Below are positions 1 to 56,504 of a stretch of 64,000 bases of DNA, piece after piece. The translations under genes and the position numbers were made by a program. Origin of the DNA: a virus; the IMG/VR virus record IMGVR_UViG_3300027706_000269, positions 1 through 64,000 of that record; one strand, given 5' to 3'. Numbering within the stretch: the stretch's first letter is position 1; every line of letters starts with the position of its first letter. Below the pieces are notes generated by a model. That model did not search any database. It was given only the letters and a program-made list of their open reading frames with translations, and had not been told where the DNA came from.

Positions 1-474
1 TCAGGGCATCGTGGCCAGCACCCGGATCTGCTCGGCCCAGCCATAGGGCCAAGGGCGGCCCAGCAGTCGCTCGACGGGGAGCTCGGGGGTGGCGGCGAGG
101 CGCTCCACCAACTCGGGGGCCAGCAGGGTCAGCCGCATCAGGCGATGGACCTGCGAGACGTCCATCCCCTCGGCCTTGGCGATCTCGGCCGCCGAGGCAA
201 CCCGTCCCTCGGTGAGCAGCCGCTGCCAGTGGTGCGCCAGCCCAAGCGCGCGCAGCAGCGCGGTGTCCGGGATCTCGGTGCGAGCGGGAGCGGCCCAGCT
301 CGAGTGCGCCTCGATGGCCGTCCGGACCCCAGGGGGTGGGATCACCGCGCGCCGGGTGCCACGCTGGACGAGCCGCCAGGGCACAAAGGTTTCCAGCTTC
401 ACGCCGCCGGCCGGTGCCGGGAGTTTCTGGGTGACCGGCGCCCCCTCGAAGCGTCCGCGGTGCTTGGTGCTCAC
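1..474 (-). CDS. Recombinase-associated small HTH protein 2
   Basis: 157 aa. Motif ETFVP...HWQRLL..G...S...IA.AEG...RLTLLAP. Homologue at 48469-48933; paralogue of the adjacent gene. Confidence 0.8.
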   Translation of the reverse strand: MSTKHRGRFEGAPVTQKLPAPAGGVKLETFVPWRLVQRGTRRAVIPPPGVRTAIEAHSSWAAPARTEIPDTALLRALGLAHHWQRLLTEGRVASAAEIAKAEGMDVSQVHRLMRLTLLAPELVERLAATPELPVERLLGRPWPYGWAEQIRVLATMP

Positions 475-854
475 GCGGCCTCCTCGAAGCGTCGCACGAT
501 CTCGCGCTGCGCCTCCCAGGCCACCGGCAGCGGATTGCGCTGGAACCAGATCAGGCTCATCCGGCGCGGCTGTCGCCCGGCCATCAGCAGCTCAACGATG
601 TCGGGCGCGAGCAGCGTCAGGCGCAGCAGTTCGTTGACCACCGAGTGGTGCAGCCCTTCGGCGCGCGCAATGGCCGAGCCGCTCGGCATGGCGCCGCTGT
701 CCAACAACCGCTGCCAGTGGAAGGCCCTTGCCATCCCTTCGATGAGCGTGCTGTCGTGCGTGTCCCGGTCCTCGGCCTTGTGCTGAACCAGCCGGCGCAC
801 GCCGCGCCGCCGCAGGGTCAGCGGCACAAAGGTTTCGCGAACTCCGTCTTTCAT
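471..854 (-). CDS. Recombinase-associated small HTH protein 1
   Basis: Start MKDGVRETFVP overlaps the recombinase stop. Near-identical homologue at 48930-49313. Confidence 0.8.
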   Translation of the reverse strand: MKDGVRETFVPLTLRRRGVRRLVQHKAEDRDTHDSTLIEGMARAFHWQRLLDSGAMPSGSAIARAEGLHHSVVNELLRLTLLAPDIVELLMAGRQPRRMSLIWFQRNPLPVAWEAQREIVRRFEEAA

Positions 855-2230
855 GCTTCGACCTCCAGCAACTCGGCGCCGATGCTCCTGGGCGCGAACT
901 CGCCAATCAAAGCGTCCCAGCCCAGTTCGCGCCACTTCACCTTGATCCCCTGCATCTCGTCGGTGTGGACGAGGTCGATGCGCTCGATCATGAGGTTGGC
1001 AATGCGGTGCCGCTCGACCGGGAAGAGCTGATCCCACACGTCGTTCAGCCGCCCCATCGCCATCACGACGGCGGCTTCGTCCATGGGCGCGCCCTGGCGC
1101 TGGACCTGGCGCACGACGGCGGCGACGGATTCGGGGCTGGTGAGCACGGTCCGGATCTGGGCCACGACCGCCGCTTCGATCTCGCCGGCGGGCAGGCGCT
1201 CGTAGCTCTTGCCGGGTGCGCCGAACCGGCTCTCAGACTTGGAGACGTAGTACTGGTACTTGCGGCCGTTCTTGCGCGAGTACGTTGGGTACATGCGTTC
1301 GCCCGTCGGCGCGTACAGCAGCCCCCGCAGCAGCGCGTCGTTGCGCGAGCGGATCTTGGTGTCCACCGACCGCGCGTGGCTGTCGCGGGCCAGCACCGCA
1401 TGCACCTGATCCCACAGCTGGCGTTCGATGATCGGCTCGTGCTGCGCCGGGTACCACTGGCCGCGATTTGACAGTTCTCCGAGATAGATGCGGTTGCGCA
1501 GCACCTTGTGGATGTACTTCTTGTCGATGCGCGTGCCGGTACGCACGCGGCCGTCCTGGGTCGTCCATGCCTTGGTCGTGACGCCCTCGGCAGTCAACCG
1601 GGCGGCGATCTGCGTGGGTGATCCGATGGTCAGCATCTCCTCGAACATCCGCCGCACCACCGCCGCCTCGGCTGGGTTGACCACCAGTTGGCGGTTGACC
1701 ACGTCGTAGCCGATGGTGGGCACGCCGCCCATCCACATTCCCTTCTTCTTGGCGGCGGCGATCTTGTCGCGGATACGCTCGCCGGTGACCTCGCGCTCGA
1801 ACTGGGCGAAGGACAGCAGGATGTTCAGCGTCAGCCGCCCCATCGAGGTGGTGGTGTTGAACTGCTGCGTGACCGACACGAAGGACACGCCCTGGCGCTC
1901 GAACACCTCGACCATCTTGGAGAAGTCGGCCAGGCTGCGCGTGAGGCGGTCGATCTTGTAGACCACCACGATGTCGACCAACCCGCGCTCGATGTCGGCC
2001 AGCAGACGCTTGAGGGCCGGCCGCTCGGTGTTGCCGCCGGAGTAGCCGGGGTCGTCGTAGTCGTCGACGACCGGAATCCACCCCTCGGCGCGTTGGCTGG
2101 CGATGAAGGCATGGCCCGCCTCCTTCTGCGCGTCGATGGAGTTGAACTCCTGGTCGAGTCGTTCATCCGACGACACCCGGCAGTAGACCGCGCAGCGCTT
2201 GCGCGGCTTCGAGGATGCGATTTCCGCCAT
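851..2230 (-). CDS. Large serine recombinase (integrase)
   Basis: CAVYCRVSS catalytic motif, SGGNTERPAL, KIDRLTRS, SFAQFERE and a recombinase domain (LRNRIYLG..HEPII). Start is coupled to the DUF2924 stop. Confidence 0.95.
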   Translation of the reverse strand: MAEIASSKPRKRCAVYCRVSSDERLDQEFNSIDAQKEAGHAFIASQRAEGWIPVVDDYDDPGYSGGNTERPALKRLLADIERGLVDIVVVYKIDRLTRSLADFSKMVEVFERQGVSFVSVTQQFNTTTSMGRLTLNILLSFAQFEREVTGERIRDKIAAAKKKGMWMGGVPTIGYDVVNRQLVVNPAEAAVVRRMFEEMLTIGSPTQIAARLTAEGVTTKAWTTQDGRVRTGTRIDKKYIHKVLRNRIYLGELSNRGQWYPAQHEPIIERQLWDQVHAVLARDSHARSVDTKIRSRNDALLRGLLYAPTGERMYPTYSRKNGRKYQYYVSKSESRFGAPGKSYERLPAGEIEAAVVAQIRTVLTSPESVAAVVRQVQRQGAPMDEAAVVMAMGRLNDVWDQLFPVERHRIANLMIERIDLVHTDEMQGIKVKWRELGWDALIGEFAPRSIGAELLEVEA

Positions 2231-2685
2231 CAGACACCTCCCTTCAGGCCGAAGAACAGCGGGCCGCTCCAATGCTGGCCGGTGATGTGCCGCGCCACGG
2301 CGGTCAGGCTCTTGAAGCGGCGGCCTTCGTATTCGAAGTGACCGTCGGCGTCGACCGTCACCCGATGCTCGCGCTCGCCCCATTCGCGCAGCAGCACAGT
2401 GCCGGGGGCGAAGTCGAACTTGCGCGCGCGGGCACGCAGTTTGATCTTGGAGTGCTTGGCGCCGATGGCCTCCAGGCGCTGGCGGGTTTGGGGGGGCAGG
2501 CCGCCGAAGGCTTCCTCCTGCAGCTTGTAGGCAAGGCGCGATTCAACAAAGGTGCGGTTCGGAAACTCCGGTCGGCGCTCGAAGTAGCGATCCCAGAGCG
2601 TCCAGAGCTCGGCCATCGGCAGGTGGCCCAGTTCGGCAATCCGTGCGGCGACGCTGGCGTGCTTGTCGTTCATGTCGTTCATCAC
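2230..2685 (-). CDS. DUF2924 family protein
   Basis: LAYKLQEEAFGGL...PGTVLLREW...SLTAVARHITGQHWSGPLFFGL, in its typical position upstream of the recombinase. Confidence 0.88.
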   Translation of the reverse strand: MMNDMNDKHASVAARIAELGHLPMAELWTLWDRYFERRPEFPNRTFVESRLAYKLQEEAFGGLPPQTRQRLEAIGAKHSKIKLRARARKFDFAPGTVLLREWGEREHRVTVDADGHFEYEGRRFKSLTAVARHITGQHWSGPLFFGLKGGV

Positions 2686-2873
2686 AACGGCTCCTGTAGA
2701 GAGGGGGTTGTATGAACGCGCTGGTGGGGCAGGAAGCCAAGCTCGATGTCGCGCTGGTTTGGCTTCGGTGCGACACGCGTACGGACAATAGCGCTTGCGA
2801 GGATGGCAGTGATCTCACCCGCACGCGCGGCGGGGCTCATGTCTGCGGGAGAAGGCAGTTCGAGGTGGTTCAT
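2682..2873 (-). CDS. Small hypothetical protein (63 aa) heading the recombinase operon
   Basis: Same length and similar sequence at 51132-51323. GGAG upstream. Contains the repeated 31-bp motif. Confidence 0.6.
   Translation of the reverse strand: MNHLELPSPADMSPAARAGEITAILASAIVRTRVAPKPNQRDIELGFLPHQRVHTTPSLQEPL
2712..2742 (-). promoter_or_regulatory. 31-bp repeated promoter/operator motif, copy 1
   Basis: ATGAACGCGCTGGTGGGGCAGGAAGCCAAGC, 26 bp upstream of the DUF2924 start. Confidence 0.7.
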
Positions 2874-2958
2874 GACGGCTCCAGGGAATCGAAACCGTCA
2901 GTGATGGTCCGCGAGGCCGTCCGAAACGGATGGCAACGCATAGCAATGCGTCTCTATC

Positions 2959-2987
2959 TTGCAAATCTTGTTTCGCAAGAATACAAT
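2959..2987 (+). promoter_or_regulatory. Sigma70-type promoter with an operator in the spacer
   Basis: TTGCAA-17 bp-TACAAT, with the inverted repeat TCTTG-N5-CAAGA at 2966-2980. Confidence 0.72.
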
Positions 2988-3012
2988 GCGGTTCTTTCCT
3001 CAGAGGACTGCC

Positions 3013-4131
3013 ATGCTCGACCGTCTTTCCCCTCGCTTGGTGGGCTATCGCGTGAAAGCTGCACGCGAGGGCAAGGGCTGGACGCAAGAACAGTTGACTG
3101 CCGCGATGGGCATCAACGATCGGCAGACGCTGTCGGACATCGAGAAGGGCAAGCGGCTGGTGAAGCCAGATGAGTTGGTCCTGCTGTCCGACGTGCTCGA
3201 CCGCGACGTCGAGTTCTTTCTGGACCCGTTCGCTGTCACCGGCGAGGCTCAGTTCAACTGGCGCGCAGCTCCCGAGATCGACGAGGCGAGCCTGGACGCG
3301 TTCGAGCTAAAGGCGGGCCAGTGGATTGGCCTCCTGCGATGGCTGAGGGCGTCAGAGAACCAGCAAGGCCCGCTCAAGCACAGCCTGAGGCTCACCGCGC
3401 AGTCCTCGTTCGAGGATGCCCAGGCGCGGGCCGAAAGCCTCGTACAGGCGCTGGAGTTGGGTGATGTGCCCGCCGAGCGCCTGATTGAGCGCGTGGAGCG
3501 CGGTCTCGACATTCCGGTGCTGTTCGTGGATACCGTCCAAACCGAGGAAGGCGAGTCGATTTCAGGCGCGACCTGCCACTTGCAGGATCTGGGCGTCATC
3601 CTTATCAACCGTCACGAGCCCGAATCGCGGCGCTTCTACGACCTCGCGCATGAGCTGTTCCATGCGCTGACTTGGGACGCGATGCAGCCCGACCACCGGG
3701 AATCGAATTCGGTTGAGGACCGCTCCCGGGGCAAGCGCATCGAGCAACTGGCCAACAACTTCGCGGCTGCGCTGCTCATGCCGACGGCATCGCTGGACCG
3801 TCTGATTGACCGACGCCGCATCGACGACGCAGCCCACCTAGCGGAGATTGCAGCCCAGCTGCGCGTGGCGCCGGCAGCGCTGGCGTGGCGGCTGTTCAAC
3901 CTGCGATGGATCACGGAGCCGACGCGCCAGGCGCTCCTGTCTGAGCGGCAGCGGCTCTCGCGATCTGCAATTCCGAAGCGTTTCTCGCCTGTGTTCGTTG
4001 CGATGCTGCATCGGGCGATCGACCATGGGAGGCTGTCGGCGCGTAAGGCAGCTAAGGCGATGGGCATGAGCCTCACGCAGCTGGTCGACCTGTTTGCTGA
4101 GCATTCCTTGGCTGCACCCTATGAGCTTTGA
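3013..4131 (+). CDS. XRE-HTH fused to an ImmA/IrrE-type Zn metallopeptidase
   Basis: N-terminal HTH (WTQEQL...QTLSDIEKGKR), LAHELFHAL (HExxH) and EQLANNFAAALLMP. GAGGA RBS. Confidence 0.92.
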   Translation: MLDRLSPRLVGYRVKAAREGKGWTQEQLTAAMGINDRQTLSDIEKGKRLVKPDELVLLSDVLDRDVEFFLDPFAVTGEAQFNWRAAPEIDEASLDAFELKAGQWIGLLRWLRASENQQGPLKHSLRLTAQSSFEDAQARAESLVQALELGDVPAERLIERVERGLDIPVLFVDTVQTEEGESISGATCHLQDLGVILINRHEPESRRFYDLAHELFHALTWDAMQPDHRESNSVEDRSRGKRIEQLANNFAAALLMPTASLDRLIDRRRIDDAAHLAEIAAQLRVAPAALAWRLFNLRWITEPTRQALLSERQRLSRSAIPKRFSPVFVAMLHRAIDHGRLSARKAAKAMGMSLTQLVDLFAEHSLAAPYEL

Positions 4132-4143
4132 GGTGCGCCCGGA

Positions 4144-4686
4144 ATGCAGCAGGTCGTCGCTCCTCACGCCCGGGTCCGCGTTTTCGTCGACACCAATGTC
4201 ATCCTCGAAGCCTTCCGCGTTGGGTGCTGGTCATCACTGGCAACTACCTTTTCGATTGAAACCGTCGAGAAGTGCGTCGAGGAAGCCCTGACAGGGGACC
4301 CGACTGATCCGCGCCACGTAGCTGTCGATCGCGACGTTCTGGTCGCAGGTTTGTCGGCGCGCCACCCGGTCGACAAACGCACCATCGCCAGGTTCGGGCT
4401 TGCCCATCCGGCCAGCGCTGGACTCGACGCCGGGGAGCTTCACTTGCTGGCCTGGCTCCATGACCAAGGATTGATGGGGACAGTCAAGCTGCTGCTATCG
4501 ACGGCGGACAAGGCGGCGATCGTCGCCGCCGGTCGTCTCGACTGGCTCGATCTGGTGACGTCTCTGGAGCAATTGGCCCAGCAAGCCGGCGTCGGCCGAG
4601 TTCAGATCGACCAAATGGCTCGCCACTACCGCCAGCGGTGGCTCGATGAGATCAAGGTGAAGGTCCGTCTCGGGATCATCCCCTGA
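4144..4686 (+). CDS. PIN-domain protein
   Basis: VFVDTNVIL, LDAGE and STADKAA give the acidic PIN signature. Confidence 0.8.
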   Translation: MQQVVAPHARVRVFVDTNVILEAFRVGCWSSLATTFSIETVEKCVEEALTGDPTDPRHVAVDRDVLVAGLSARHPVDKRTIARFGLAHPASAGLDAGELHLLAWLHDQGLMGTVKLLLSTADKAAIVAAGRLDWLDLVTSLEQLAQQAGVGRVQIDQMARHYRQRWLDEIKVKVRLGIIP

Positions 4687-4714
4687 CAGGAAGGTTGAGC
4701 AACAAGAACGAACA

Positions 4715-6928
4715 ATGACCCAGGCGAAGAAGAACACTGCCTCGTTCCATCGGTTTGTTGAAACCGCATCCCTTGGTGCCATTCGGACGCTTTGCGACAG
4801 CGTCAGCGACCTGGCAGGTCAGCTGTGGGTTACGTCCGCGCTCGCGCAACTGACGCCTGAGGCCGATGCCCAGACGTGTGCCCAGGCTCGACGGGCGCTG
4901 TCCGACGGCTGCCGACATCTGACCACGGAATCCCTGTCGAGGCTTGAAGGCGATGCGCGACGGGTGATCGCATTGGCCGAAGGCAAAGGTCCCGCGGCAA
5001 TCAAAGTCGTCGAGCGCGACATCTACAAATTCGATGATCCGGAAGGCGGACTACGTGCCGGCTTTGATGCACAGACCGACGACCTTGGGAGATCGGTGTT
5101 CCTGCTGATTCGGGTGCCCCAGCTGTTCGAGGAGGCCGAGCGATTCCACTTCGCCGAGCACTATCGGAATTTCGGTCGCCTCTATGAAGCCTTCGAGGTC
5201 GACTGCGACCAACTGGCGCAATTCGAGTGGAACGAAGCCGCCAAGGCCGCGTTCGAGACCAAGATCAAGGAGCAGCTGCAGATCTCCGGTCCTTGCCTCA
5301 TTCAGCACTTCGAGGTCTCCCAGTCTGATGACGGTGCAGGTTCGCCTTCACTGCACATGTTCTTGATCCGGCATGCCGGAATGACCAGCAGCGTCCAGGA
5401 CACCTTGCCCGATCTCTCTCTACAGCCCATCCACTACAAGCCTCCGGTCGAAGCAACACTGCTATTCGAACCTGCCCAGAAGCGGATCGAGGTGTTCGCC
5501 GAGCAGGCAGCCGAGCGTCCGCTGATCGCCGCTGCGTTCGCGGAAGTCGCGACGGGATCAGATCTTTCAGGTAGGCCGATGTCGCTTCGCCAGTACAACC
5601 TGGAGCGCTTCTATCGGTCGCTTCATCTGTCGCAAGCCGAGGTGGAACATCTTGGTGTTTTGGACGTGCGAGTGGTCGAGGCCGAAGCGCGGCCGCAGAA
5701 CCTCAAGCGCCGTGTGGTGGTAAAGGTCGACAAGGACGACGACATCGATACCGCAGCGCGCGCCATGCTCGGCGACAACAACATCTTCAGCCGGGCAACG
5801 TTGATCAGCCGGGTCGTGATCAACCTGCGGTTCGAACGTAACGGTAAGGAGGTGAACCTGCCGATCACGCTGAGCGCGCCTAATCGTTGCAACCTAGCAA
5901 GCCGTCAGGACCCGCGCGACCGCGAGTTGGGCTATGCGGTCCTTGAGGCCTACGGCATCGTCAGATCGGTCGCGCCACTCGATGCCGCGAGCGAGGCCGG
6001 GCAGTTCAGCGCGATGCTGCGGTTGTATGAGTCGGATTGTGCGGAAGTCTCCCGCGCTGAACTGCACAACTGGGGCGCGGACGTTTCCGTGCTGCGGTCG
6101 GCGGGCTTCCTGGTTCCGAAGGCGCGGGCATCATTTGTGACCCGAGTTCGCGACGATGGGACGGTACTCCAGGCGCCAGTGCGTTCGATTGAAGGGCGGC
6201 TGGTCTTTGACGACCCGCAGACCGGACTCCTGGTTGCGGTTGATCCCAGCGAGCTGGAGCGATTCGAGGTCAAACGGGACTGGCTCACCGAGCGTGTCAT
6301 CAAGGGGTTGCGCGGGGCGATGCGCATGGGGCGCACGCCGCGGTCAACCGGTCCCGTCGTGAAGCTCGGTACGCTGGTCGACGGAAACGACGATGTTCCG
6401 GTGCACCTGGCTCGCTGCCTTGACCGAATGGATGTCATTGCCTCTGTAGACAGCAGTCTGCGCGGCGACGGTCAGTCGGGCTGGGGTGTGGTTCTGACAG
6501 CCACGGAGGTTTGTCCTGAGTTCCTCGGGGCGAACGTCATCGTGCAGTTGGCTGACGTCCTGATGGCGGACGAAGCTGGAATCACTGTCGACCAGACACG
6601 GCTGATGCAGATCCTGCGCGATGGTCGCCAGCGAGCCATCGCCGCAGCCGTTCCTGATCTGCGCATCACCTGCGATATCGCGGGCAAGGAAACGGCCACG
6701 CTCATCATCCCTGGCAAGCTGCCGTTCTCTCTCGTCGGGGGCAAACAAGTTCTGGTGGTCGAGCGCTTGATGCAAGCGCATCGCGCAGGCAATCCGGTTG
6801 TCACCGGTGGCGCGCTGTTCGAAGGCATGAGCAGCAAGTCTCCTGCCCAGCTCTTTACTGGCGATACCTGGAAGCAGTACATCGGGCATCCACCCGACAA
6901 GTCCCGGGGGTGGATGCTGCTGCTCTGA
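4715..6928 (+). CDS. Uncharacterised 737-aa protein with a probable C-terminal winged helix
   Basis: Long ORF with collinear motif matches to 51428-53683 along its length. Confidence 0.85.
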   Translation: MTQAKKNTASFHRFVETASLGAIRTLCDSVSDLAGQLWVTSALAQLTPEADAQTCAQARRALSDGCRHLTTESLSRLEGDARRVIALAEGKGPAAIKVVERDIYKFDDPEGGLRAGFDAQTDDLGRSVFLLIRVPQLFEEAERFHFAEHYRNFGRLYEAFEVDCDQLAQFEWNEAAKAAFETKIKEQLQISGPCLIQHFEVSQSDDGAGSPSLHMFLIRHAGMTSSVQDTLPDLSLQPIHYKPPVEATLLFEPAQKRIEVFAEQAAERPLIAAAFAEVATGSDLSGRPMSLRQYNLERFYRSLHLSQAEVEHLGVLDVRVVEAEARPQNLKRRVVVKVDKDDDIDTAARAMLGDNNIFSRATLISRVVINLRFERNGKEVNLPITLSAPNRCNLASRQDPRDRELGYAVLEAYGIVRSVAPLDAASEAGQFSAMLRLYESDCAEVSRAELHNWGADVSVLRSAGFLVPKARASFVTRVRDDGTVLQAPVRSIEGRLVFDDPQTGLLVAVDPSELERFEVKRDWLTERVIKGLRGAMRMGRTPRSTGPVVKLGTLVDGNDDVPVHLARCLDRMDVIASVDSSLRGDGQSGWGVVLTATEVCPEFLGANVIVQLADVLMADEAGITVDQTRLMQILRDGRQRAIAAAVPDLRITCDIAGKETATLIIPGKLPFSLVGGKQVLVVERLMQAHRAGNPVVTGGALFEGMSSKSPAQLFTGDTWKQYIGHPPDKSRGWMLLL

Positions 6929-6957
6929 TCGCTACCTCTAGAGGAGTCAACGCCGTG

Positions 6958-6990
6958 CGGGCTGCCCTTGGGCAGCCCGTTCTGCTTCTG
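6958..6990 (+). terminator. Probable intrinsic terminator of the immunity-region operon
   Basis: CGGGCTGCCC-TT-GGGCAGCCCG followed by a T-rich tail. Confidence 0.65.
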
Positions 6991-6996
6991 GCATCC

Positions 6997-7036
6997 ACCT
7001 ACATTCGACCTACAAAACATCAGCGGACGACCTACA
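6997..7036 (+). repeat. Three phased ACCTACA direct repeats at the early promoter
   Basis: Copies start at 6997, 7008 and 7030 (periods of 11 and 22 bp). Confidence 0.8.
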
Positions 7037-7087
7037 GACCGATTCGAAGAATGAGACGTGCCCTTTCACTACACAGGAGCACATCTC

Positions 7088-7354
7088 GTGAATACCCGAG
7101 TCCCTTCTGTTCAGACGCGCAGCCAATCTGCACGCTGGACGCAATCTGCAGGCGAAGTCCGCCTTGCCCTCAACGAGCATGAGCTGGCGGCCCGCTGGGG
7201 CCTGTCGGTCAAGACCCTGCGCCGCTGGCGTCAAGAGCAGCTCGGCCCGGTCTTCTGCAAGCTGGGCGCCCGCGTCACCTACCTGATCTCCGAAGTCGAA
7301 GCTTTCGAACGGCGCGTCTCGCGCTACTCGACCTTTGCTCGGGCGTACCAGTGA
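7088..7354 (+). CDS. AlpA/excisionase-like HTH protein
   Basis: LNEHELAARWGLSVKTLRRWR...GPVFCKLGARVTY. AGGAG RBS, GTG start. Homologue at 54974. Confidence 0.85.
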   Translation: MNTRVPSVQTRSQSARWTQSAGEVRLALNEHELAARWGLSVKTLRRWRQEQLGPVFCKLGARVTYLISEVEAFERRVSRYSTFARAYQ

Positions 7355-7365
7355 GGGAGACGGCC

Positions 7366-7845
7366 ATGAGTGACCTGACCGTATTCCCCGCCGACATTGC
7401 CGCGATGTCGGTCGGCCAATTGGCCGCGCTTCCGCCTGACCAGAAGGCCGAGATCTCCCGCAACCTCGACGAAGCCCTTGATTGGCTCAAGAAGGCGCGC
7501 GCCAAGTTCGACGTGGCGCTGGATGCGGCCTATGGCGAACAGGTCCGCGCCGCGCGCTTCGAGGCCGGCAAGGACTTCGGCGTCATCCATCTCCAGGACG
7601 GCCCGCTGCGCGTCACGGTCGACACCCCGAAGCGCGTGTCCTGGGACCAGGCGCAGCTCGCTGCCACCGCTCGGCGCATCGCCGAGGCCGGCGAGAAGGT
7701 CGAGGACTACCTGGACGTCGAGTTCAGCGTCTCCGAGTCGCGCTTCAACAACTGGCCCGCGGCTCTGCGCTCGCAGTTCGAGGCCGCGCGCACGGTCAAG
7801 CCTGGCAAACCCACGTTTCGGCTGACCTTGACCTCGGAGGACTGA
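7366..7845 (+). CDS. Conserved phage early protein (159 aa)
   Basis: Highly similar to 55248-55727; same operon position. Confidence 0.8.
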   Translation: MSDLTVFPADIAAMSVGQLAALPPDQKAEISRNLDEALDWLKKARAKFDVALDAAYGEQVRAARFEAGKDFGVIHLQDGPLRVTVDTPKRVSWDQAQLAATARRIAEAGEKVEDYLDVEFSVSESRFNNWPAALRSQFEAARTVKPGKPTFRLTLTSED

Positions 7846-7848
7846 TCC

Positions 7849-8604
7849 ATGAACAACGAACTGATTCCGTTCGATTTCGAGGGCCGGCCGGTCCGTGTTG
7901 TCACCGACGCACAAGTCGAGCCGTGGTTCGTCGCGGCGGATGTCGCCCAGTCGCTCGACTACCGCATGGCCAGCGACATGACCCGCTCGCTCGATGACGA
8001 CGAGAAGGGTACGCAGATTGTGCGTACCCCCTCGGGCGATCAGGAGATGCTGGTCATCAACGAATCCGGCTTGTACTCGGCGATCCTCAAGAGCCGCAAG
8101 CCCGAGGCCAAGCGTTTCAAGCGCTGGGTGACCCGCGAGGTGCTGCCGGCCATCCGCAAGACGGGTCGCTACGCGCTGTCTGGAACACCGGCACTGCCTG
8201 CCCCGACCCAAGACCGTGTGAGCTCGATTCTGCTGATCGGCGAGGCCGTCGCCAAGGTTCCCGGGGTGAAGCCCGGCATCGCGATGGCGGCCACGCTCAC
8301 ATGCATCCACGAGAACACGGGCTTGGCGGTCGAGACCCTGCGACGCGCGCTGCCGGCCGCGAACGAGGCGATTTGCTCGCTCAACGCCACCCAGCTCGGC
8401 AAGCTGCTCGGCCTGTCTGCCAAGGCCACCAACCAGCGTCTGGCCCAGCACGGCCTGCAGTTCCGCAACGAACGCGACGAGTGGGAGCTGACCGAGGCCG
8501 GCGAGGCTTGGGCCGAAGCGATGCCGTACTCGCGCAACGGGCACAGCGGCTATCAGATTCTCTGGAACCCCGCCGTCGCCGAGCAGCTGAAGGAGGTGGC
8601 GTGA
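7849..8604 (+). CDS. Bro-N domain antirepressor-like protein
   Basis: FDFEGRPVRV, PWFVAADV, INESGLY and AKRFKRWVTREVLPAIRKTG. Confidence 0.9.
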   Translation: MNNELIPFDFEGRPVRVVTDAQVEPWFVAADVAQSLDYRMASDMTRSLDDDEKGTQIVRTPSGDQEMLVINESGLYSAILKSRKPEAKRFKRWVTREVLPAIRKTGRYALSGTPALPAPTQDRVSSILLIGEAVAKVPGVKPGIAMAATLTCIHENTGLAVETLRRALPAANEAICSLNATQLGKLLGLSAKATNQRLAQHGLQFRNERDEWELTEAGEAWAEAMPYSRNGHSGYQILWNPAVAEQLKEVA

Positions 8605-9425
8605 TGGCCCTTCCCATCATCACCGCCGACCAACGTCTGCGCGAGAAGCAGGGCGTGAAGCTCGTGCTTCTGGGCAAGAGCGGCATCGGCAAGACCACCC
8701 AGCTCAAGACACTGCCCGAGGCCTCGACTCTGTTCGTCGATCTGGAGGCCGGCGACTTGGCCGTCAAGGACTGGCGCGGCGACTGCGTGCGTCCGACCAC
8801 CTGGCCGGAGTTCCGGGATCTGGTCGTATTCCTGGCCGGCCCCAACCCGGCATTGCCGCCCGAGGCGCCGTTCTCGGACGCGCACTACCGGCACGTGTGC
8901 GAGCGCTACGGCGACCCGGCGCAACTGGCCAAGTACGACACCTACTTCGTCGACAGCATCACTGTGCTGGCGCGGCTGGCGCTGATCTGGTCGAAGGCGC
9001 AGCCGCAGGCTGTGTCCGAGCGCACTGGCAAGCCGGACACGCGCGGCGCCTACGGACTGCTCGGTACCGAGATGCTGACCGCGCTCACCCACTTGCAGCA
9101 TGCCCGCGGCAAGCACGTCGTGTTCGTCGCGATTCTCGACGAGCGCATCGACGACTTCAACCGCAAGGTGTTCGTGCCCCAGATCGAGGGCGCCAAGACC
9201 GCTGCCGAACTGCCCGGCATCGTCGACGAGGTGGTGACGCTCGCCGAGATCAAGGCCGAGGACGGCAGCGCCTACCGCGCCTTCGTCACCCACACCCTGA
9301 ACCCCTACGGCTACCCGGCCAAGGACCGCTCCGGTCAGCTCGATGTGCTGGAGCCGCCCGACCTGCGCGCGCTGATCGAGAAGTGCGCCGCCGCCACCCA
9401 CATCCCGAACACCACCAAGGAATAA
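8604..9425 (+). CDS. Sak4-like AAA ATPase (ssDNA annealing)
   Basis: Walker A GKSGIGKT, FVDLEAG, FVDSIT and AKDRSG; followed by an SSB-like gene. Confidence 0.85.
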   Translation: MALPIITADQRLREKQGVKLVLLGKSGIGKTTQLKTLPEASTLFVDLEAGDLAVKDWRGDCVRPTTWPEFRDLVVFLAGPNPALPPEAPFSDAHYRHVCERYGDPAQLAKYDTYFVDSITVLARLALIWSKAQPQAVSERTGKPDTRGAYGLLGTEMLTALTHLQHARGKHVVFVAILDERIDDFNRKVFVPQIEGAKTAAELPGIVDEVVTLAEIKAEDGSAYRAFVTHTLNPYGYPAKDRSGQLDVLEPPDLRALIEKCAAATHIPNTTKE

Positions 9426-9428
9426 GCC

Positions 9429-10034
9429 ATGACCGCTTGGAACGACTTCAACGACGCCGAACAGCAGCAGACCTTCGACCTGATCCCCAAGGGCACGGTC
9501 GCCCGAGTCCGGATGACTATCAAGCCCGGCGGATACGACGACCCGGTGCAGGGCTGGACCGGTGGATACGCCACGCAGAGTTTCGAGACCGGCTCGGTCT
9601 ACCTGGCCTGCGAGTTCGTCGTGCTGGAGGGCGAGTACGCCCGCCGCAAGATGTGGAGCAATGTCGGCCTGCACAGCCCAAAGGGACCGGCTTGGGGGAA
9701 CATGGGGCGGAGCTTCGTCCGTGCCGCGCTGAACTCTGCGCGCAACATCCGCCCTCAGGACAGTTCGCCGCAGGCCGCCGCTGCCCGCCGCATCCAGGGC
9801 TTCCACGAGCTCGATGGCCTGGAGTTCGTTGCGCGCATTGACATCGAGAAGGACGGGCGCGGCGAACTGCGCAACGTCGTGAAGATGGCGGTCGAGCCCG
9901 ACCAGGCGGACTACGCCCAAGCGTTGGGCGCGGCGCCTGTACCCGCTGCGGTGACGCGTTCTGCATCTGCACCGGCGGCTCCCATGCAGGCAGTCCGCCC
10001 TGCCGTCCCTGGCAAGCCCGCCTGGGCGCAGTGA
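9429..10034 (+). CDS. Phage ssDNA-binding protein-like
   Basis: FDLIPKG, EFVVLEGEYARRK and a low-complexity tail ending KPAWAQ; Sak4-SSB synteny. Confidence 0.7.
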   Translation: MTAWNDFNDAEQQQTFDLIPKGTVARVRMTIKPGGYDDPVQGWTGGYATQSFETGSVYLACEFVVLEGEYARRKMWSNVGLHSPKGPAWGNMGRSFVRAALNSARNIRPQDSSPQAAAARRIQGFHELDGLEFVARIDIEKDGRGELRNVVKMAVEPDQADYAQALGAAPVPAAVTRSASAPAAPMQAVRPAVPGKPAWAQ

Positions 10035-10043
10035 GGGGGGCGG

Positions 10044-10553
10044 ATGAAATGCTGGGTCTGCAAACGACAGGCCCGGGGCTTCGGCCACACCGACAACCGG
10101 CACGGTGTCGGCGATCCCCGGCGCTACCCCATCGACTGGGTGTTCTGCTCGCGTCGCTGCCAGGAGGCGTTTCACGCGCTTTACGGCAACTGGCTGCGCG
10201 TGAAGGAAGGGGCGCGAAACGAGACGGAGGTCACCATGATCGATCCGTCTGACGTCGAGCTGGCCGCCATGCGCAAGTGCCTCAAGGCTTTCGGCGAAGC
10301 GGCAGGCGAGATCGGCTTTGCCAAGCCACTCGGTGAGTACGCGGAGGCAGAGGCGTTGCAGGTTATCGACGCCATCGTCACCTGCTACACGGAGGCGATG
10401 GTCGAGCACCATGAGGCGACCAAGTACCCCCCAGTGCGCGGAATGACGCCAACGCCCGACCCCATGAGGGCGGATGCGAGCCCATTCGCCGACATGGCCG
10501 ACGACCTGCCTTGGGAACATCCCGGGCAGCAGACCAAGGGGAAGAAGCCATGA
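10044..10553 (+). CDS. Conserved phage protein with CxxC/CxxxC motifs (DUF6511-like)
   Basis: CWVC...FCSRRC; homologue at 57976. Confidence 0.75.
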   Translation: MKCWVCKRQARGFGHTDNRHGVGDPRRYPIDWVFCSRRCQEAFHALYGNWLRVKEGARNETEVTMIDPSDVELAAMRKCLKAFGEAAGEIGFAKPLGEYAEAEALQVIDAIVTCYTEAMVEHHEATKYPPVRGMTPTPDPMRADASPFADMADDLPWEHPGQQTKGKKP

Positions 10554-11296
10554 TGGACTTCAACTCCTCGGCCAGTCTCTCTGGCCTTCTGACCGCGTTG
10601 ATCGATACCGGGATGCAGCGCGCCCGGGCAGCGCAGCCGCGACGCACCTATCTGGGCGCATCGCGCCTCGGGGCCGAGTGCGAGCGTGCATTGCAGTACG
10701 AGTACGCCGCGGCTCCGGTCGATGCCGGCCGCGACACTGACGGGCGCATCCTGCGCATCTTCGAGCGCGGTCACGTCATGGAAGACTGCGCGGTGACGTG
10801 GCTGCGTGCGGCGGGCTTCGATCTGCGCACACGCAAGGCCAACGGCGACCAGTTCGGCTTCACCGCCTTGGACGGCCGCCTGCAGGGGCACGTCGATGGC
10901 GTGATCGTGGCCGGTCCCGACTTGGGTCATGGCTTCGGGTATCCGGCGCTGTGGGAGAACAAGTGCCTGGGCTCGAAGTCATGGCGCGAGTTGGAGAAGT
11001 ACCGGCTCGCTGTCGCCAAGCCCGTGTATGCGGCCCAGGTGGCGCTGTACCAGGCCTACCTTGATCTGCACGAACACCCGGCGCTGTTCACCGCAGTCAA
11101 CGCAGACACGATGGAGATTTACGCCGAGCTGGTGCCCTTCGATGCGGCGCTCGCGCAGCGCATGTCGGACCGCGCGGTCAAGGTGATCACCGCGACTGAG
11201 GCCGGTGATCTGCTGCCGCGCTCGTTCTCCGAATCTACCCACTTTGAATGCCGGATGTGCCCGTGGCAGGACCGGTGCTGGAGGAGTCAGGCATGA
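10550..11296 (+). CDS. Cas4-like PD-(D/E)xK exonuclease
   Basis: YLGASRLG.ECER, GHVDG, WENKC, QVALY and CRMCPWQDRC (four Fe-S cysteines). Confidence 0.85.
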   Translation: MMDFNSSASLSGLLTALIDTGMQRARAAQPRRTYLGASRLGAECERALQYEYAAAPVDAGRDTDGRILRIFERGHVMEDCAVTWLRAAGFDLRTRKANGDQFGFTALDGRLQGHVDGVIVAGPDLGHGFGYPALWENKCLGSKSWRELEKYRLAVAKPVYAAQVALYQAYLDLHEHPALFTAVNADTMEIYAELVPFDAALAQRMSDRAVKVITATEAGDLLPRSFSESTHFECRMCPWQDRCWRSQA

Positions 11297-11544
11297 GCAC
11301 CAAGCCCGATGCCGTCATGGCCGTCGAACCGATGATCGACGCCAAGCAAGCGGCCGCGTCGCTGCGGCTTCCGTACTACTGGTTCGCCGACCCGGCGATG
11401 CGCAGCAAGTACCGCATTCCGCACTACCTCCTGGGCGGGCTCGTTCGGTACCGGCTGTCAGAACTGTCTGCATGGGCGGCTCACAGCACTGCTGCGCAGG
11501 GGCGTGATGCTTTGCGGCCAAGCAAAGCCGAGGGGGGCGAATGA
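11293..11544 (+). CDS. Small excisionase-like DNA-binding protein
   Basis: MIDAKQAAASL...IPHYLLGGLVRYRLSEL; homologue at 59231. Confidence 0.75.
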   Translation: MSTKPDAVMAVEPMIDAKQAAASLRLPYYWFADPAMRSKYRIPHYLLGGLVRYRLSELSAWAAHSTAAQGRDALRPSKAEGGE

Positions 11545-13823
11545 TCGACTTCAACGACGTTGCTCCCGCCCCGGAGCGCAGCCTCGATGCCGAGCGCGAT
11601 CAGATCCGCGCTGCCTTGTTGGCCCGGCTCGAATCGGTGCTGTTCACCCTGTTTCCTGCCGGCAAGAAGCGGCGAGGCAAGTTCCTGATCGGTGACGTGA
11701 TGGGCAGCCCCGGCGACAGCCTTGAAGTGGTGCTCGAAGGCGAAAAGGCCGGCTTGTGGACCGACCGTGCTACGGGCGACGGCGGTGACATGTTCGACGT
11801 GATCGCCCGCCATATCGGCTCGGACGTCCACGCCGACTTCCCGCGCGTGCTCGGTGTTGCCGCTGACCTGATCGGTCGCGCTCGGCCGGTTGCGCCGCGT
11901 CGGCCGAAGAAGGAGGCTCCGGTCGATGACCTTGGTCCGGCCACCGCCAAGTGGGACTACCTCGACGCCGCTGGCCGACTGATCGCGGTCGTCTACCGCT
12001 ACGACCCGCCCGGCCAGAGGAAGGAATTCCGTCCCTGGGACGCGCGCCGCCGCAAGATGGCCCCGCCCGAGCCGCGCCCCCTCTACAACCAGCCGGGTCT
12101 GACGACGGCAGCGCAGGTCGTGCTCGTCGAAGGCGAGAAGTGCGCGCAGGCGCTGATCGACGCTGGCATCGTGGCCACCACTGCCATGCACGGCGCCAAC
12201 GCGCCGGTGGACAAGACTGACTGGTCGCCGCTGGCCGGCAAGGCGGTACTTGTCTGGCCCGACCGCGACAAGCCGGGGTGGGAGTACGCGGTGCAAGCGG
12301 CTCAGGCCATCCTGTCCGCCGGCGCCAAGTCCTGCCACATCCTCTACCCACCTGAGGATGCCGCCGAGGGCTGGGACGCGGCCGACGCCATGTCCGAAGG
12401 CTTCGACGTGGCGGCCTTCCTGGCCCACGGCCCGCGTGTGCAGATGCACGACATCGCGGACCCCGGAGAGCCGGTGGTCGGTACTGACGAATCGGTATGG
12501 GGTACCGAAGACGCACTGGCGCTGGCCTTCACTCGTCGCTACCACCGTGACTGGCGCTACGTTGCCGCGTGGGGACGGTGGTTGGTGTGGGATGGTCAGC
12601 GCTGGCGCACCGAGGACACGCTGGCCGCGACTGATCTCATCCGCGGCGTCTGCCGGCATGCAGCCGTCCAGGCCGATAACCCCAAGGTGGCGGCCAAGCT
12701 GGCCACCTCTGGCACCGTTGGCGGCGTGGAACGGCTGGCTCGCGCGGATCGGCGACATGCCGCAACCACGGCCGAATGGGACGCCGATTCCTGGCTGCTC
12801 AACACGCCGGGCGGTGTTGTCGATCTCAAGACGGGTCGGCAGCGCCCGCACGACCGGGCAGACCGGATGACCAAGATCACCACTGCCACGCCGGCCGGCG
12901 ACTGCCCGACCTGGCGGCAGTTCATCGCCGAAGTGACTGGCGGCGATGCCGCGTTGCAGGCGTACATGCAGCGCATGGCGGGCTACGCGCTCACCGGATC
13001 GACGCAGGAGCACGCGCTGTTCTTTCTCTACGGGACCGGTGCGAATGGCAAATCTGTGTTCGTCAACACGTTGGCCACGATCCTGGGCGACTACGCGTCG
13101 AACGCGCCGATGGACACCTTCATGGAGACCCGTACCGATCGACATCCGACTGACATGGCTGGCCTACGCGGCGCGCGTTTCGTGGCAGCGATCGAGACGG
13201 AGCAAGGGCGGCGGTGGGCCGAATCCAAGGTCAAGAGCCTCACGGGCGGCGACAAGATCTCCGCGCGCTTCATGCGCCAAGACTTCTTCGAGTTCTTTCC
13301 GCAGTTCAAGCTCTTCGTCGCTGGCAACCATAAGCCGGCCATCCGCAACATCGACGAGGCGATGAAACGGCGGCTGCACTTGATCCCGTTCACGATCACC
13401 GTGCCGCCCGAGCGCCGGGATAAGCACTTGCAACAGAAGTTGCTGGCTGAGCGAGACGGCATCCTGGCCTGGGCGGTGCAGGGCTGCCTGGACTGGCAGC
13501 GCCTGGGTCGGCTCGATCCGCCGCAACAGGTGGTGGAAGCGACCGAAGAGTACTTCGAAGCCGAGGACGCGCTGGGCCGTTGGCTCGACGAGCGCTGCGT
13601 GCTCGACGCCAATTCCAAGTCACTGACCAGCGAACTCTTTGCCGACTGGAAGCAGTGGGCCGAGTCCGCCGGCGAGTTCGCCGGCTCCCAGAAGCGCTTT
13701 GCTGACCTGCTGCTCACCCGTGGCGTGGAGAAGTGGCGCAACACCGTGGGGCTGCGCGGCTTCCGAGGCGTGGGCCTCAAGCACCCGCCCGCGCCCGCCT
13801 ACACCCCCTACGCCGATCACTGA
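11541..13823 (+). CDS. P4-family primase-helicase (TOPRIM + D5-like SF3 helicase)
   Basis: VLVEGEKCA, WPDRDKPG, GWDAAD, GTGANGKS and AGNHKP. Confidence 0.93.
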   Translation: MIDFNDVAPAPERSLDAERDQIRAALLARLESVLFTLFPAGKKRRGKFLIGDVMGSPGDSLEVVLEGEKAGLWTDRATGDGGDMFDVIARHIGSDVHADFPRVLGVAADLIGRARPVAPRRPKKEAPVDDLGPATAKWDYLDAAGRLIAVVYRYDPPGQRKEFRPWDARRRKMAPPEPRPLYNQPGLTTAAQVVLVEGEKCAQALIDAGIVATTAMHGANAPVDKTDWSPLAGKAVLVWPDRDKPGWEYAVQAAQAILSAGAKSCHILYPPEDAAEGWDAADAMSEGFDVAAFLAHGPRVQMHDIADPGEPVVGTDESVWGTEDALALAFTRRYHRDWRYVAAWGRWLVWDGQRWRTEDTLAATDLIRGVCRHAAVQADNPKVAAKLATSGTVGGVERLARADRRHAATTAEWDADSWLLNTPGGVVDLKTGRQRPHDRADRMTKITTATPAGDCPTWRQFIAEVTGGDAALQAYMQRMAGYALTGSTQEHALFFLYGTGANGKSVFVNTLATILGDYASNAPMDTFMETRTDRHPTDMAGLRGARFVAAIETEQGRRWAESKVKSLTGGDKISARFMRQDFFEFFPQFKLFVAGNHKPAIRNIDEAMKRRLHLIPFTITVPPERRDKHLQQKLLAERDGILAWAVQGCLDWQRLGRLDPPQQVVEATEEYFEAEDALGRWLDERCVLDANSKSLTSELFADWKQWAESAGEFAGSQKRFADLLLTRGVEKWRNTVGLRGFRGVGLKHPPAPAYTPYADH

Positions 13824-13841
13824 CCGCCATGACCACCGATC

Positions 13842-13943
13842 GGACTGACGGATTTGACGGTCCACGTCGTAAGTTTTCCCGCGCGGGCGCGCGTACACGC
13901 GCCTCAAGCGGGTTTCGATGCGGTCTGTCCGATGTGTCAGTCC
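13842..13943. other. Putative replication origin of prophage A
   Basis: GGACTGAC...GTCAGTCC inverted arms flank an alternating purine/pyrimidine tract (13887-13902), directly after the primase. Same design at 61760-61860. Confidence 0.6.
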
Positions 13944-13962
13944 CCAAACAAGGACTGCATCC

Positions 13963-14439
13963 ATGAACCCGACTCTTTTGGCCCTCGACCTGGGCACCCG
14001 AACCGGCTGGGCGCTGCGCAGCAGTGACGGCCACATCACAAGTGGCAGCGAGAGCTTCCGCCCGCAACGATTCGAAGGCGGCGGGATGCGCTTCTTGCGC
14101 TTCAAGCGCTGGCTCACCGAAATCAAGTCTCAGGCGGACGGCATCGGCGCGCTGTACTTCGAGGAGGTTCGCCGCCATGCCTCGACAGACGCGGCGCATA
14201 CCTACGGTGGATTTCTTGCAACGCTGACCGCGTGGTGTGAGCACCACCAGATTCCGTACCAGGGCGTGCCTGTCGGCACCATCAAGAAGCACGCCACCGG
14301 CCGGGGTAACGCTGGCAAGGACCAGGTCATTATCGCTGTCCGTAGCCGAGGACATGCGCCGGTCGACGACAACGAAGCCGACGCACTGGCGCTGTTGCAT
14401 TGGGCGATTCAGGACCACGGCGTGGGGCAGGAGGTGTGA
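13963..14439 (+). CDS. RuvC-like Holliday junction resolvase
   Basis: LALDLGTRTGWA, YFEEVR, TIKKHATG.GNA.K and DNEADA. Confidence 0.82.
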   Translation: MNPTLLALDLGTRTGWALRSSDGHITSGSESFRPQRFEGGGMRFLRFKRWLTEIKSQADGIGALYFEEVRRHASTDAAHTYGGFLATLTAWCEHHQIPYQGVPVGTIKKHATGRGNAGKDQVIIAVRSRGHAPVDDNEADALALLHWAIQDHGVGQEV

Positions 14440-14440
14440 G

Positions 14441-14650
14441 ATGAAGATCCCGACTCCGCCCTACCGCTGTCCACTTGGCAGGCTCCAACCCGAGGCGACC
14501 GACCTCGAGTTGCTCAAGCAACGCGGCTGGCGCGATCAGCACATTCTGGTCATCAACGAAACCGACGAGCGGTTGGACTTCGTCGAGCGCGAGTTCGTGC
14601 GCCGCATCGGCGAACGTCTCTACGGCGCAGGAGGGCCGCGCCGTGGCTGA
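14441..14650 (+). CDS. Small hypothetical protein
   Basis: YRCPLGRLQPE is conserved at 62369. GGAGG RBS. Confidence 0.75.
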   Translation: MKIPTPPYRCPLGRLQPEATDLELLKQRGWRDQHILVINETDERLDFVEREFVRRIGERLYGAGGPRRG

Positions 14651-15059
14651 GTGGACCATCGAGGACGTGGCAGCTCGCTTCGAAGAGGCTGCCACCACCG
14701 GAAGACGCCTACCCCCGGTGCGGGTGCAGGGCTACTTCAACACCTGGCCGGTCTTCGTGCGACAGGAGTGGGAGGCGTTCGCCGCCGACGAGAAGGTCTA
14801 CCGGCCTTTCCCACCCAGCCCTGAGGCTGTCGATCGCATGCTGGAGACGATGCGCTGGGTGCAGTGGCTCGAGGTCGAGCAGCGCCACCTGGTGTGGATG
14901 CGGGCCAAGCGCTACGGCTGGCGAGACATCACGATCCGATTCGCGTGCGATAGGACGACGGCATGGCGGCGCTGGCAGAAGGCGCTGCAGATGGTGGCTG
15001 ACCGGCTCAATGGCGAGGGGGCACGGCTGCCGTCCAAAGCCGTGGGCAACGTCGGGTAA
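14643..15059 (+). CDS. Putative late-gene regulator (DUF6362-like, C-terminal HTH)
   Basis: WRDITIRFACDRTTAWRRW helix-turn-helix. Occupies the lambda Q position before the late promoter and cos. Confidence 0.72.
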   Translation: MAEWTIEDVAARFEEAATTGRRLPPVRVQGYFNTWPVFVRQEWEAFAADEKVYRPFPPSPEAVDRMLETMRWVQWLEVEQRHLVWMRAKRYGWRDITIRFACDRTTAWRRWQKALQMVADRLNGEGARLPSKAVGNVG

Positions 15060-15117
15060 CGACGATCGCCTGTGTCCTCGTGTTGCTGTCCTTGTCCATT
15101 TTCGAGATCGACCACGC

Positions 15118-15147
15118 TGCAACAAACCGGGGCTTCGTCGCTACTAT
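15118..15147 (+). promoter_or_regulatory. Putative late promoter
   Basis: TGCAACAAA...TACTAT, conserved as TGCAACAAA...TAGTAT at 63778-63808. Confidence 0.55.
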
Positions 15148-15201
15148 TTCAGCTATGTTCTGGACAGCAGTGGCGGTTGAGGCGGCGGCCCCAGGCGAAA
15201 G

Positions 15202-15300
15202 GGGTCCTTCCTCCCGAAGATGCCATGCGGGGGGCGCGAGCGCGGCATTCGCCTAGCGTCCGACTGCAAACCCAGGTTTGCAGGGGTTTGCAGGTTTGCA
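15202..15300 (+). other. cos site of prophage A (cosQ/cosN/cosB-like)
   Basis: GGGTCCT (identical to lambda cosQ), then ATGCGGGGGGCGCGAGCGCGGC, then TGCAAACC and three GGTTTGCA. Conserved in B; the terminase is lambda-type. Confidence 0.75.
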
Positions 15301-15343
15301 CCCCGACCCATCCAGCCCCGCCAGTGATCGCATCACTTGCCCG

Positions 15344-48178: not shown

Positions 48179-48208
48179 AAGGCCAACCGATCTCGGTTGG
48201 CCTTTTTT
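48179..48208 (+). terminator. Intrinsic terminator at the left end of prophage B
   Basis: AAGGCCAACCGA-TC-TCGGTTGGCCTT followed by TTTT. Confidence 0.85.
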
Positions 48209-48468: not shown

Positions 48469-48933
48469 TCAGTCAAGCAACCGCACCTGCTCGCGCCAGC
48501 CGTAAGGCCAGGGGCGGCCCAGCACCTTCTCGACGGCGAGGTCGGGCGATCCGATCAGCCGCTCGACCACCTCGGGCGCGAGCAGCGTCAGCCGCATCAG
48601 GCGATGCACTTTGGATACATCCAGCCCTTCGGCCTGGGCGATCTCGGCCGCCGACGCCACCCGCCCCTCATGGAGCAGCCGTTGCCAGTGGTGCGCCAGC
48701 CCGAGCGCGCGCATCAACGCCGTGTCCTTGGCCTCGGTGCGCGCCGGGCCGGCCCACGTCGAGTGAACCTCCACACCTTTCGGTGCGCCGGGCGGCGCGA
48801 TCACCGCGCGCCGGATGCCGCGCTGCACCAGCCGCCAGGGCACGAAGGTTTCCAGTTTCACGCCGCCCGCCGGCGTCGGCAGTTTCTGGGTGACCGGCGC
48901 TCCCTCGATGCGTCCCCGGTGCTTCGTGCTCAC
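48469..48933 (-). CDS. Recombinase-associated small HTH protein 2 (B)
   Basis: Homologue of 1-474. Confidence 0.8.
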   Translation of the reverse strand: MSTKHRGRIEGAPVTQKLPTPAGGVKLETFVPWRLVQRGIRRAVIAPPGAPKGVEVHSTWAGPARTEAKDTALMRALGLAHHWQRLLHEGRVASAAEIAQAEGLDVSKVHRLMRLTLLAPEVVERLIGSPDLAVEKVLGRPWPYGWREQVRLLD

Positions 48934-51132: not shown

Positions 51133-51323
51133 CACAACTTCTCCTGTTGAGAGGGGGTTGTATGAACGCGCTGGTCGGGCAAGAAGCCAAGGCGAACCGC
51201 GCTCTGTTCCAGCCCGGAAGACCCGAGGGTACGGACGATGGCGGCCGCAAGGATGGTGGTGATTTCGCCAGCACGGGCGCTGGCGCTCATCTCTGCCGGA
51301 GATGCAAGTTCGAGGTTCTTCAT
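51132..51323 (-). CDS. Small hypothetical protein, 63 aa (B)
   Basis: Homologue of 2682-2873. Confidence 0.6.
   Translation of the reverse strand: MKNLELASPAEMSASARAGEITTILAAAIVRTLGSSGLEQSAVRLGFLPDQRVHTTPSQQEKL
51162..51192 (-). promoter_or_regulatory. 31-bp motif, copy 5
   Basis: ATGAACGCGCTGGTCGGGCAAGAAGCCAAGG. Confidence 0.7.
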
Positions 51324-51427
51324 GACGGCTCCAGGGAATAGAAACCGCCAGGGATGATGTGCGCAGCTTTCCGAAGCGGATCGCAACGCCGATCAATCGG
51401 CGCGGCGCGCTGACGCCTCAACGGCGG

Positions 51428-55730: not shown

Positions 55731-56504
55731 ATGAGCACCGAACTGATCCCGTTTGATTTCGAAGGCCGTCCGGTCCGGGTCGTCACGGATGCCCAAGGCG
55801 AACCGTGGTTCGTCGCGGCGGATGTGTGCGCGGTTCTTGAACTGCCGAACACCACCCGCGCCCTGGCGCGGCTGGACCCTGACGAGCAAGCCCTGATCTC
55901 GATTCAGGGCATCTCGCGCGGCAATGACCAGGTCAACGTCGTCAACGAGCCCGGGCTGTACAGCCTGGTCCTCGGCAGCCGCAAGCGCGAGGCCAAGCGC
56001 TTCAAGCGCTGGGTCACCCACGAGGTGCTGCCGGCGATCCGCAAGACGGGCAGCTACACGGCGCCAAGTGCACGCCCGACCCTGCCGGCACCCACCCAGG
56101 ACCGCGTCGCCGCTCTGCTGCTGATCGGCGAGGCCGTGGCCAAGGTGCCGGGGGTCAAACCCGGCATCGCGATGGCGGCCACGCTCTCCTGCATCCAGGA
56201 GAACACGGGCTTGGCGGTCGAGACGCTGCGCCGCGCCCTTCCTGCCAGGGACACTGCCGCGAACGAGGCGATCTGCTCGCTCAACGCCACCCAGCTCGGC
56301 AGGCTGCTCGGCCTGTCGGCCAAGGCCACCAACCAGCGTCTGGCCACGCACGGCCTGCAGTTGCGCAACGAACGCGACGAGTGGGAACTGACCGAGGCCG
56401 GCGAGGCCTGGGCCGAAGCCATGCCGTACTCGCGCAACGGGCACAGCGGCTACCAGATCCTCTGGAACCCGGCGGTCGCGGAGCGGCTGAAGGAGGTGGC
56501 GTGA
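55731..56504 (+). CDS. Bro-N antirepressor-like protein (B)
   Basis: PWFVAADV, NEPGLY and AKRFKRWV. Confidence 0.9.
   Translation: MSTELIPFDFEGRPVRVVTDAQGEPWFVAADVCAVLELPNTTRALARLDPDEQALISIQGISRGNDQVNVVNEPGLYSLVLGSRKREAKRFKRWVTHEVLPAIRKTGSYTAPSARPTLPAPTQDRVAALLLIGEAVAKVPGVKPGIAMAATLSCIQENTGLAVETLRRALPARDTAANEAICSLNATQLGRLLGLSAKATNQRLATHGLQLRNERDEWELTEAGEAWAEAMPYSRNGHSGYQILWNPAVAERLKEVA

Follow-up and report, generated by a model that had tools for sequence, protein, structure and literature searches.

A covarying inverted repeat kept at one position within Bro-N domain coding sequences

The replication origins of lambdoid phages lie in gene O, where a symmetric site sits inside the coding sequence of the domain that reads it, and where site and reader diverge together between phage types. 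These origins comprise several iterons and an AT-rich region, are found in one phage group, and have demonstrated binding. The picornavirus cre is an RNA element of a single virus group, a covarying stem within the open reading frame (ORF) in which G·U pairs are tolerated. Among phage regulators, Roi of phage HK022 reportedly binds a site within its own gene. The paper on Roi is that of Clerget and Boccard (1996), which PMC3430580 cites. Perfect stems can also come from a mutational process, template switching at quasi-palindromes, which has been documented both to create and to maintain them (PMC8794818).

Here we describe an inverted repeat within the coding sequence of Bro-N domains that resembles each of these systems in part. 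Like the lambdoid origins, it lies within the coding sequence of its own reader, if, as we infer, the Bro-N protein reads it; unlike them, it is a single dyad, occurs superfamily-wide and is known from sequence. It shares with cre a covarying in-ORF stem whose pairing constrains codon choice, but it lacks a wobble bias and accompanies a protein domain in viral and cellular genomes alike. The likeness to template-switch products lies in perfect stems whose two arms change together, although that process alone leaves the retention of a dyad at one site of a superfamily unexplained. Roi belongs to the antirepressor/KilAC class of phage regulators, and the site reported within its gene parallels what we propose for Bro-N; however, its N-terminal half (ORF L235:4656-5381) looks Rha-like by eye, and for this reason we set it aside as a direct precedent. 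Roi was not among the Bro-N matches analysed.

Bro-N domains are described as a DNA-binding superfamily (PMC8096241), and BRO proteins have been reported to bind DNA, according to work cited in PMC6537400. The window analysed here spans the first 64 kb of a provirus record 91.8 kb long and holds two related prophages in tandem (positions 17-15304 and 48476-63963, 73–88% nucleotide identity), whose similarity extends over ~15 kb of early genes and which carry different alleles of the Bro-N variable block. The early operon of each prophage encodes an HTH_17 protein, a protein of 159–164 amino acids (without a family match in a Pfam search of copy A), the Bro-N protein and an AAA_24 ATPase. Genes A and B (Table 1) match the Pfam Bro-N profile (PF02498) with 89.2 bits (E = 2.7e-25) and 82.4 bits (E = 3.7e-23), respectively, both above the curated cut-off of 25.6 bits; gene A also has a weak KilAC match. 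The closest genomic homologue (98%) comes from Chitinimonas lacunae. The two Bro-N genes are 77% identical and nearly all of their differences fall in residues 33–72, in agreement with the first-pass annotation, which had placed its palindromes in the divergent segment of otherwise similar genes.

Table 1. Coordinates of the genes, dyads and related features (positions in the window unless another sequence is named)
Feature	Coordinates	Strand	Description
Gene A	7849..8604	+	Bro-N domain protein, 251 aa; third gene of the early operon
Hypervariable block of gene A	7945..8064	+	Residues 33-72: end of helix 1, short helix 2, beta-4/beta-5 hairpin
Dyad A	8007..8029		Perfect inverted repeat, 9-bp arms, 5-nt loop, axis at 8018
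Extended hairpin A	8001..8035		Outer 4-bp helix in the fold, 8001-8004 with 8032-8035
Gene B	55731..56504	+	Paralogous Bro-N protein, 257 aa; second related prophage
Dyad B	55890..55910		7-bp arms, 7-nt loop, axis at 55900
Extended hairpin B	55883..55917		Outer 4-bp helix in the fold, as in A
dinD inverted repeat	L236:3934-3965 = NC_000913 3817693-3817724		E. coli K-12 SOS gene

Both dyads were found where they had been claimed, with the coordinates, symmetry and encoded peptides (GTQIVRT in A, ALISIQG in B) all confirmed. Their axes fall at nucleotide 170 of the coding sequence (0-based offset 169), position 2 of codon 57 in both genes, and the register is therefore identical, as the claim of palindromes at the same codons had it. 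Because the axis lies on the middle base of codon 57, the codons on its left are the reverse complements of their mirror codons on the right; the arms encode conserved K-G and T-P residues. Dyad A folds with −13.4 kcal/mol as DNA (z = −5.8) and −21.5 kcal/mol as RNA (z = −5.2), and dyad B with −8.9 (z = −2.9) and −16.5 kcal/mol (z = −3.6), respectively. Dyad A exceeded synonymous resampling at p < 0.002, and dyad B was marginal (p about 0.04); the sequence of dyad B is identical in 28/28 homologues of its allele. Across the window, perfect dyads with arms of at least 7 bp number 56 against ~42 expected, and those with arms of at least 9 bp number 8 against ~3 expected. Dyads of this size are thus close to chance within the window alone, and the case rests on comparison with other genomes.

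Several other explanations were discarded. An intrinsic terminator is not supported: no T run follows dyad A or dyad B, and the terminator scan reports neither. Reading the dyads as promoters gave a negative result, and no Rfam family matched at gathering score anywhere in the window. Nor is the dyad an inserted REP- or MITE-like palindrome, since homologues with and without it have the same length at the site.

The check proposed in the first-pass annotation, a codon alignment scored against synonymous shuffles, was run on homologues of genes A and B (160 loci fetched, giving 154 complete genes, 129 of them distinct). The segment K-G-x5-T-P occurs as ~12 peptide alleles, almost every one with its own near-perfect dyad on the same axis; one allele that seemed to be dyad-free has 10 of 12 positions paired, plus one G·T and one A·C. 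A perfect dyad with arms of at least 7 bp is centred on the same alignment column in 83 of the 129 distinct homologues. When codons were redrawn from each gene's own usage, with arm length as the statistic, 35 of 72 site haplotypes beat the resampled sequences at p ≤ 0.01, and 49 of 72 did so at the 5% level.

Complementarity between the arms is kept while their sequence changes. Among 84 distinct haplotypes, 77% of the cells are paired, compared with 59% in shuffles, and the covariation score is 0.395, compared with 0.129 when shuffled (0/500 shuffles reach the observed value) and at most 0.171 when partners are slid. Double changes occur at 11 of the 12 predicted pairs: pair 25-51, for example, is found as GC (30), CG (19) and AU (17), pair 26-38 as UA (37), GC (20) and CG (17), and pair 28-36 as AU (49), CG (19) and GC (7) with no unpaired cell. 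Four of the inner pairs have three pair types each, with few or no unpaired cells. Synonymous diversity is ~0.18 in the dyad codons against ~0.47 in flanking codons (~2.6-fold lower in the arms), and rare codons appear where pairing requires them.

These genes contain only one other dyad hotspot, which served as a control. It lies in the C-terminal half (window positions 56146-56166, with an equivalent in gene A), has 7-bp arms and covers the conserved V-P-G-V-K-P-G-I (P-G) motif. Its sequence is conserved in ~30 homologues and it shows no covariation, so that the encoded peptide accounts for it. In one pair of near-identical genes (L006 and L098, 1% flank divergence), a single Gly-to-Ala codon change removes two outer pairs of a dyad with 12-bp arms without compensation, which indicates that the outer pairs are dispensable.

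The same arrangement recurs far beyond these homologues. Searching 300 randomly drawn Pseudomonadota genomes with the Pfam Bro-N profile yielded 62 diverse domains, 23 of which have a perfect dyad with arms of at least 7 bp in the 45-nt site zone; the remaining 15.5 kb of sequence contains 10. When the domains were folded in sliding windows of 33 nt, the stability maximum fell at the site in 28 of these 62 domains (~6 expected), and in 34 the site ranked among the lowest 5% of control windows. Of 23 domains from 300 Bacteroidota genomes, 20 likewise had their most stable window at the site. The dyad sequences differ throughout the sampled domains. The axis lies on a base (odd loop) in 40 of 41 distinct strong dyads, and on codon position 2 in 29 of the 41. 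All three flanking residue pairs fit reverse-complement codons in 31% of site zones, compared with 6.5% of control zones (p = 2e-9).

The SOS gene dinD of E. coli K-12, whose Bro-N match (32.4 bits) exceeds the cut-off, has an inverted repeat with 15-nt arms (93% complementary) at residues 58–68, inside the part that codes for the Bro-N domain (Table 1). The feature occurs in unrelated gene contexts, and also in internal domains of multi-domain proteins. A notable dyad is missing from roughly 15% of the sampled Bacteroidota domains and 45% of those from Pseudomonadota, and some Bro-N members can therefore do without the element. Four Pseudomonadota loci (L174, L177, L189 and L205) have two or three tandem Bro-N domains per ORF, some of them with a strong dyad at the site and others with none.

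Dyads A and B are local cases of an inverted repeat, with arms of 7–12 bp and an odd loop of 3–7 nt, at a fixed place in the Bro-N coding sequence. The comparisons show that the residues flanking the axis are forced into reverse-complement codon pairs. They also show selection on nucleotide-level complementarity of the arms, and the symmetry of the DNA is preserved even at the cost of an altered protein. The first-pass annotation had argued that symmetry is kept while sequence is not, beyond what protein-level selection explains, and this is borne out by the resampling, the covariation, the synonymous diversity and the residue pairs alike.

An AlphaFold model of protein A (mean pLDDT 78.7) has three strands, helices at 29–35 and 41–45, and a beta-hairpin (53–60 and 63–71). 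Dyad A codes for strand beta-4 (K53-T60), the first strand of the beta-hairpin that follows the helix-turn-helix-like pair. Winged-helix folds have such a hairpin after a helix-turn-helix, and on this model the dyad-coded strand would be part of the predicted wing, just after a putative recognition helix. Structure searches with Foldseek returned weak matches: the best was 4ye7 (the CpGV Orf22 N-domain; E = 0.028, TM 0.68 on the target), and APSES domains (Mbp1 and a PCG2-DNA complex) were also matched weakly. The block holding helix 2 and the beta-hairpin is the only hypervariable block of the family, and among 92 homologues there are no invariant columns at residues 33–47 and 53–62. The co-variation of dyad and recognition helix is inseparable from physical linkage, as the two lie ~30 nt apart.

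Since the element follows the domain into unrelated contexts, its one constant partner is the encoded protein, which favours a DNA-level site read by Bro-N. Our preferred explanation, to which we give somewhat less than an even chance, is that the Bro-N protein reads the dyad of its own gene at the DNA level. The element would act as a two-fold symmetric site, either in the duplex or as an extruded hairpin, to which its reader would probably bind in dimeric form. Target and DNA-reading surface would in that case make up a single co-diverging, inseparable unit, with autoregulation through binding within the gene itself as a possible use. Following this logic, A and B, with different recognition-helix and wing alleles and different palindromes, would represent two non-cross-reacting specificities carried by the tandem prophages. 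The ~12 alleles with dyads of their own, the compensatory pairs, the codon choice, the spread through the superfamily and the position in the fold all argue for such a site.

The first-pass annotation had proposed a self-binding operator, and part of that proposal stands as a candidate. A self-bound site is the most economical reading of an element that follows the domain and lies in the predicted wing, and both dyads have the two-fold symmetry over 15–27 bp seen in palindromic operators of dimeric regulators. What fails is the resemblance to an operator placed at a promoter and present in further copies. Both dyads are within coding sequence, and no second copy of either palindrome turned up near a promoter, elsewhere in the window or the 92-kb record, or within 1.5 kb on either side of 66 homologous loci. 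A one-mismatch look-alike of dyad B at record position 67782, inside an ORF, is probably due to chance. In addition, natural operators are rarely perfect palindromes paired down to a 3-nt centre, such perfection being more typical of hairpins or template-switch products. The unusually perfect symmetry and the lack of a second copy together count against a classical operator.

A stronger form of the proposal, which we regard as speculative and somewhat doubtful, is that Bro-N proteins are 'self-addressed' binders: the codons for the wing strand would double as the symmetric site that the encoded wing and recognition helix read. Such a unit would be recombination-proof and could change specificity in one step, possibly by hairpin-templated double mutations, and self-addressing would be a general property of a domain that occurs in phages, in SOS genes of bacteria and in large DNA viruses.

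Selection for pairing could instead act on RNA. An in-frame mRNA hairpin that slows ribosomes at a fixed point, or that serves mRNA decay or processing, would account for the stable RNA folds of both dyads, for the covarying pairs, for a position fixed relative to the domain and not to the gene (internal domains included) and for G·U at one pair in 19 haplotypes. Real RNA stems, however, tolerate G·U far better than A·C, whereas mismatches at the core pairs in the family comprise 28 G·T and ~45 A·C, the A·C being equally persistent, and those in the wide sample comprise one G·T and three A·C. With no preference for G·T over A·C, symmetry at the DNA level fits better than an RNA stem, and the RNA hairpin suggested in the first-pass annotation is weakened accordingly. 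That pairing continues as far as a 3-nt loop closed by weak A-T pairs also speaks against it, as does the failure to match Rfam; a purely RNA element is further disfavoured by the missing terminator tail. Longer arms in AT-rich stems, which would have pointed to selection for stability, were not significant (arm length against GC content: rho = −0.25, p = 0.07). We consider the mRNA hairpin unlikely. Also improbable, and more so, is a functionless palindrome that maintains itself, with template switching copying one arm from the other while that part of the protein tolerates the change. The perfect arms, the missing wobble bias, the double changes (transversions included), the location of the coded strand in the variable block and the precedent cited above would all suit such a process. 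Yet many diverged lineages retain mismatched variants (GAT, GGG, GGC and AAC codons), which means that correction by template switching is not fast, and the dyad outlasts near-saturation of the flanking synonymous sites. One-step double changes of the arms, which the process predicts between close relatives, were absent from pairs with at most 6% flank divergence, among which informative pairs are few. The sole other dyad hotspot is conserved in sequence and not covarying, and a neutral process leaves unexplained why one site is kept superfamily-wide in two phyla.

A DNA hairpin or cruciform might also serve a user other than Bro-N (in replication, recombination, packaging or as the target of a structure-specific nuclease), or might diversify the wing through hairpin-templated mutation. 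Symmetry at the DNA level with no wobble bias would suit either role, and in this phage family the gene lies in the early replication and recombination operon, adjoining the AAA_24 ATPase. But the feature travels with the domain, including into chromosomal dinD, which makes a phage-specific cis function unlikely. The diversification hotspot raised in the first-pass annotation finds no backing in the data: variability at the dyad does not exceed that of the variable block around it, close relatives show no one-step double changes, and the mosaic boundaries between A and B lie ~60–70 nt either side of the dyad and not at it. We rate this family of explanations as improbable. The possibility that two unrelated dyads merely coincide, by chance or as by-products of the peptides, draws on the abundance of such dyads in the window and on the marginal resampling result for dyad B. 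It is already refuted by the comparative tests, in which the site is the single covarying-dyad hotspot in the 129 homologues and recurs in the random samples from two phyla, and its remaining probability is negligible.

A literature search for Bro-N or dinD together with palindromes found no description of this element; the one match for dinD dealt with REP and with an antisense stretch at the 3′ end. To our knowledge, nucleotide-level constraints rarely dictate amino acids, and we know of none that follows a domain across a superfamily. Should the palindrome prove to be what the domain itself binds, a DNA specificity would be available for the first time for the Bro-N antirepressor and DinD proteins, which are very common yet poorly understood; the hypervariable block of Bro-N would be explained, and a new means of holding a regulator to its site in mosaic phage genomes would come to light. 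Irrespective of what the dyad does, its codons should count as constrained at the DNA level in gene finding, in dN/dS calculations and in phage recoding. The presence of the feature in dinD of E. coli K-12 makes direct testing possible in a laboratory model.

Two other perfect dyads in the window lie outside the Bro-N genes. One, GC-rich and with 9-bp arms (6958-6979), lies a short way upstream of the HTH_17 gene, the first in the operon of gene A. The other (48179-48204; 11-bp arms, 4-nt loop) is the longest perfect dyad of the window; it lies ~270 bp ahead of the point where the homology of the second prophage begins and could be a terminator or an attachment-site feature.
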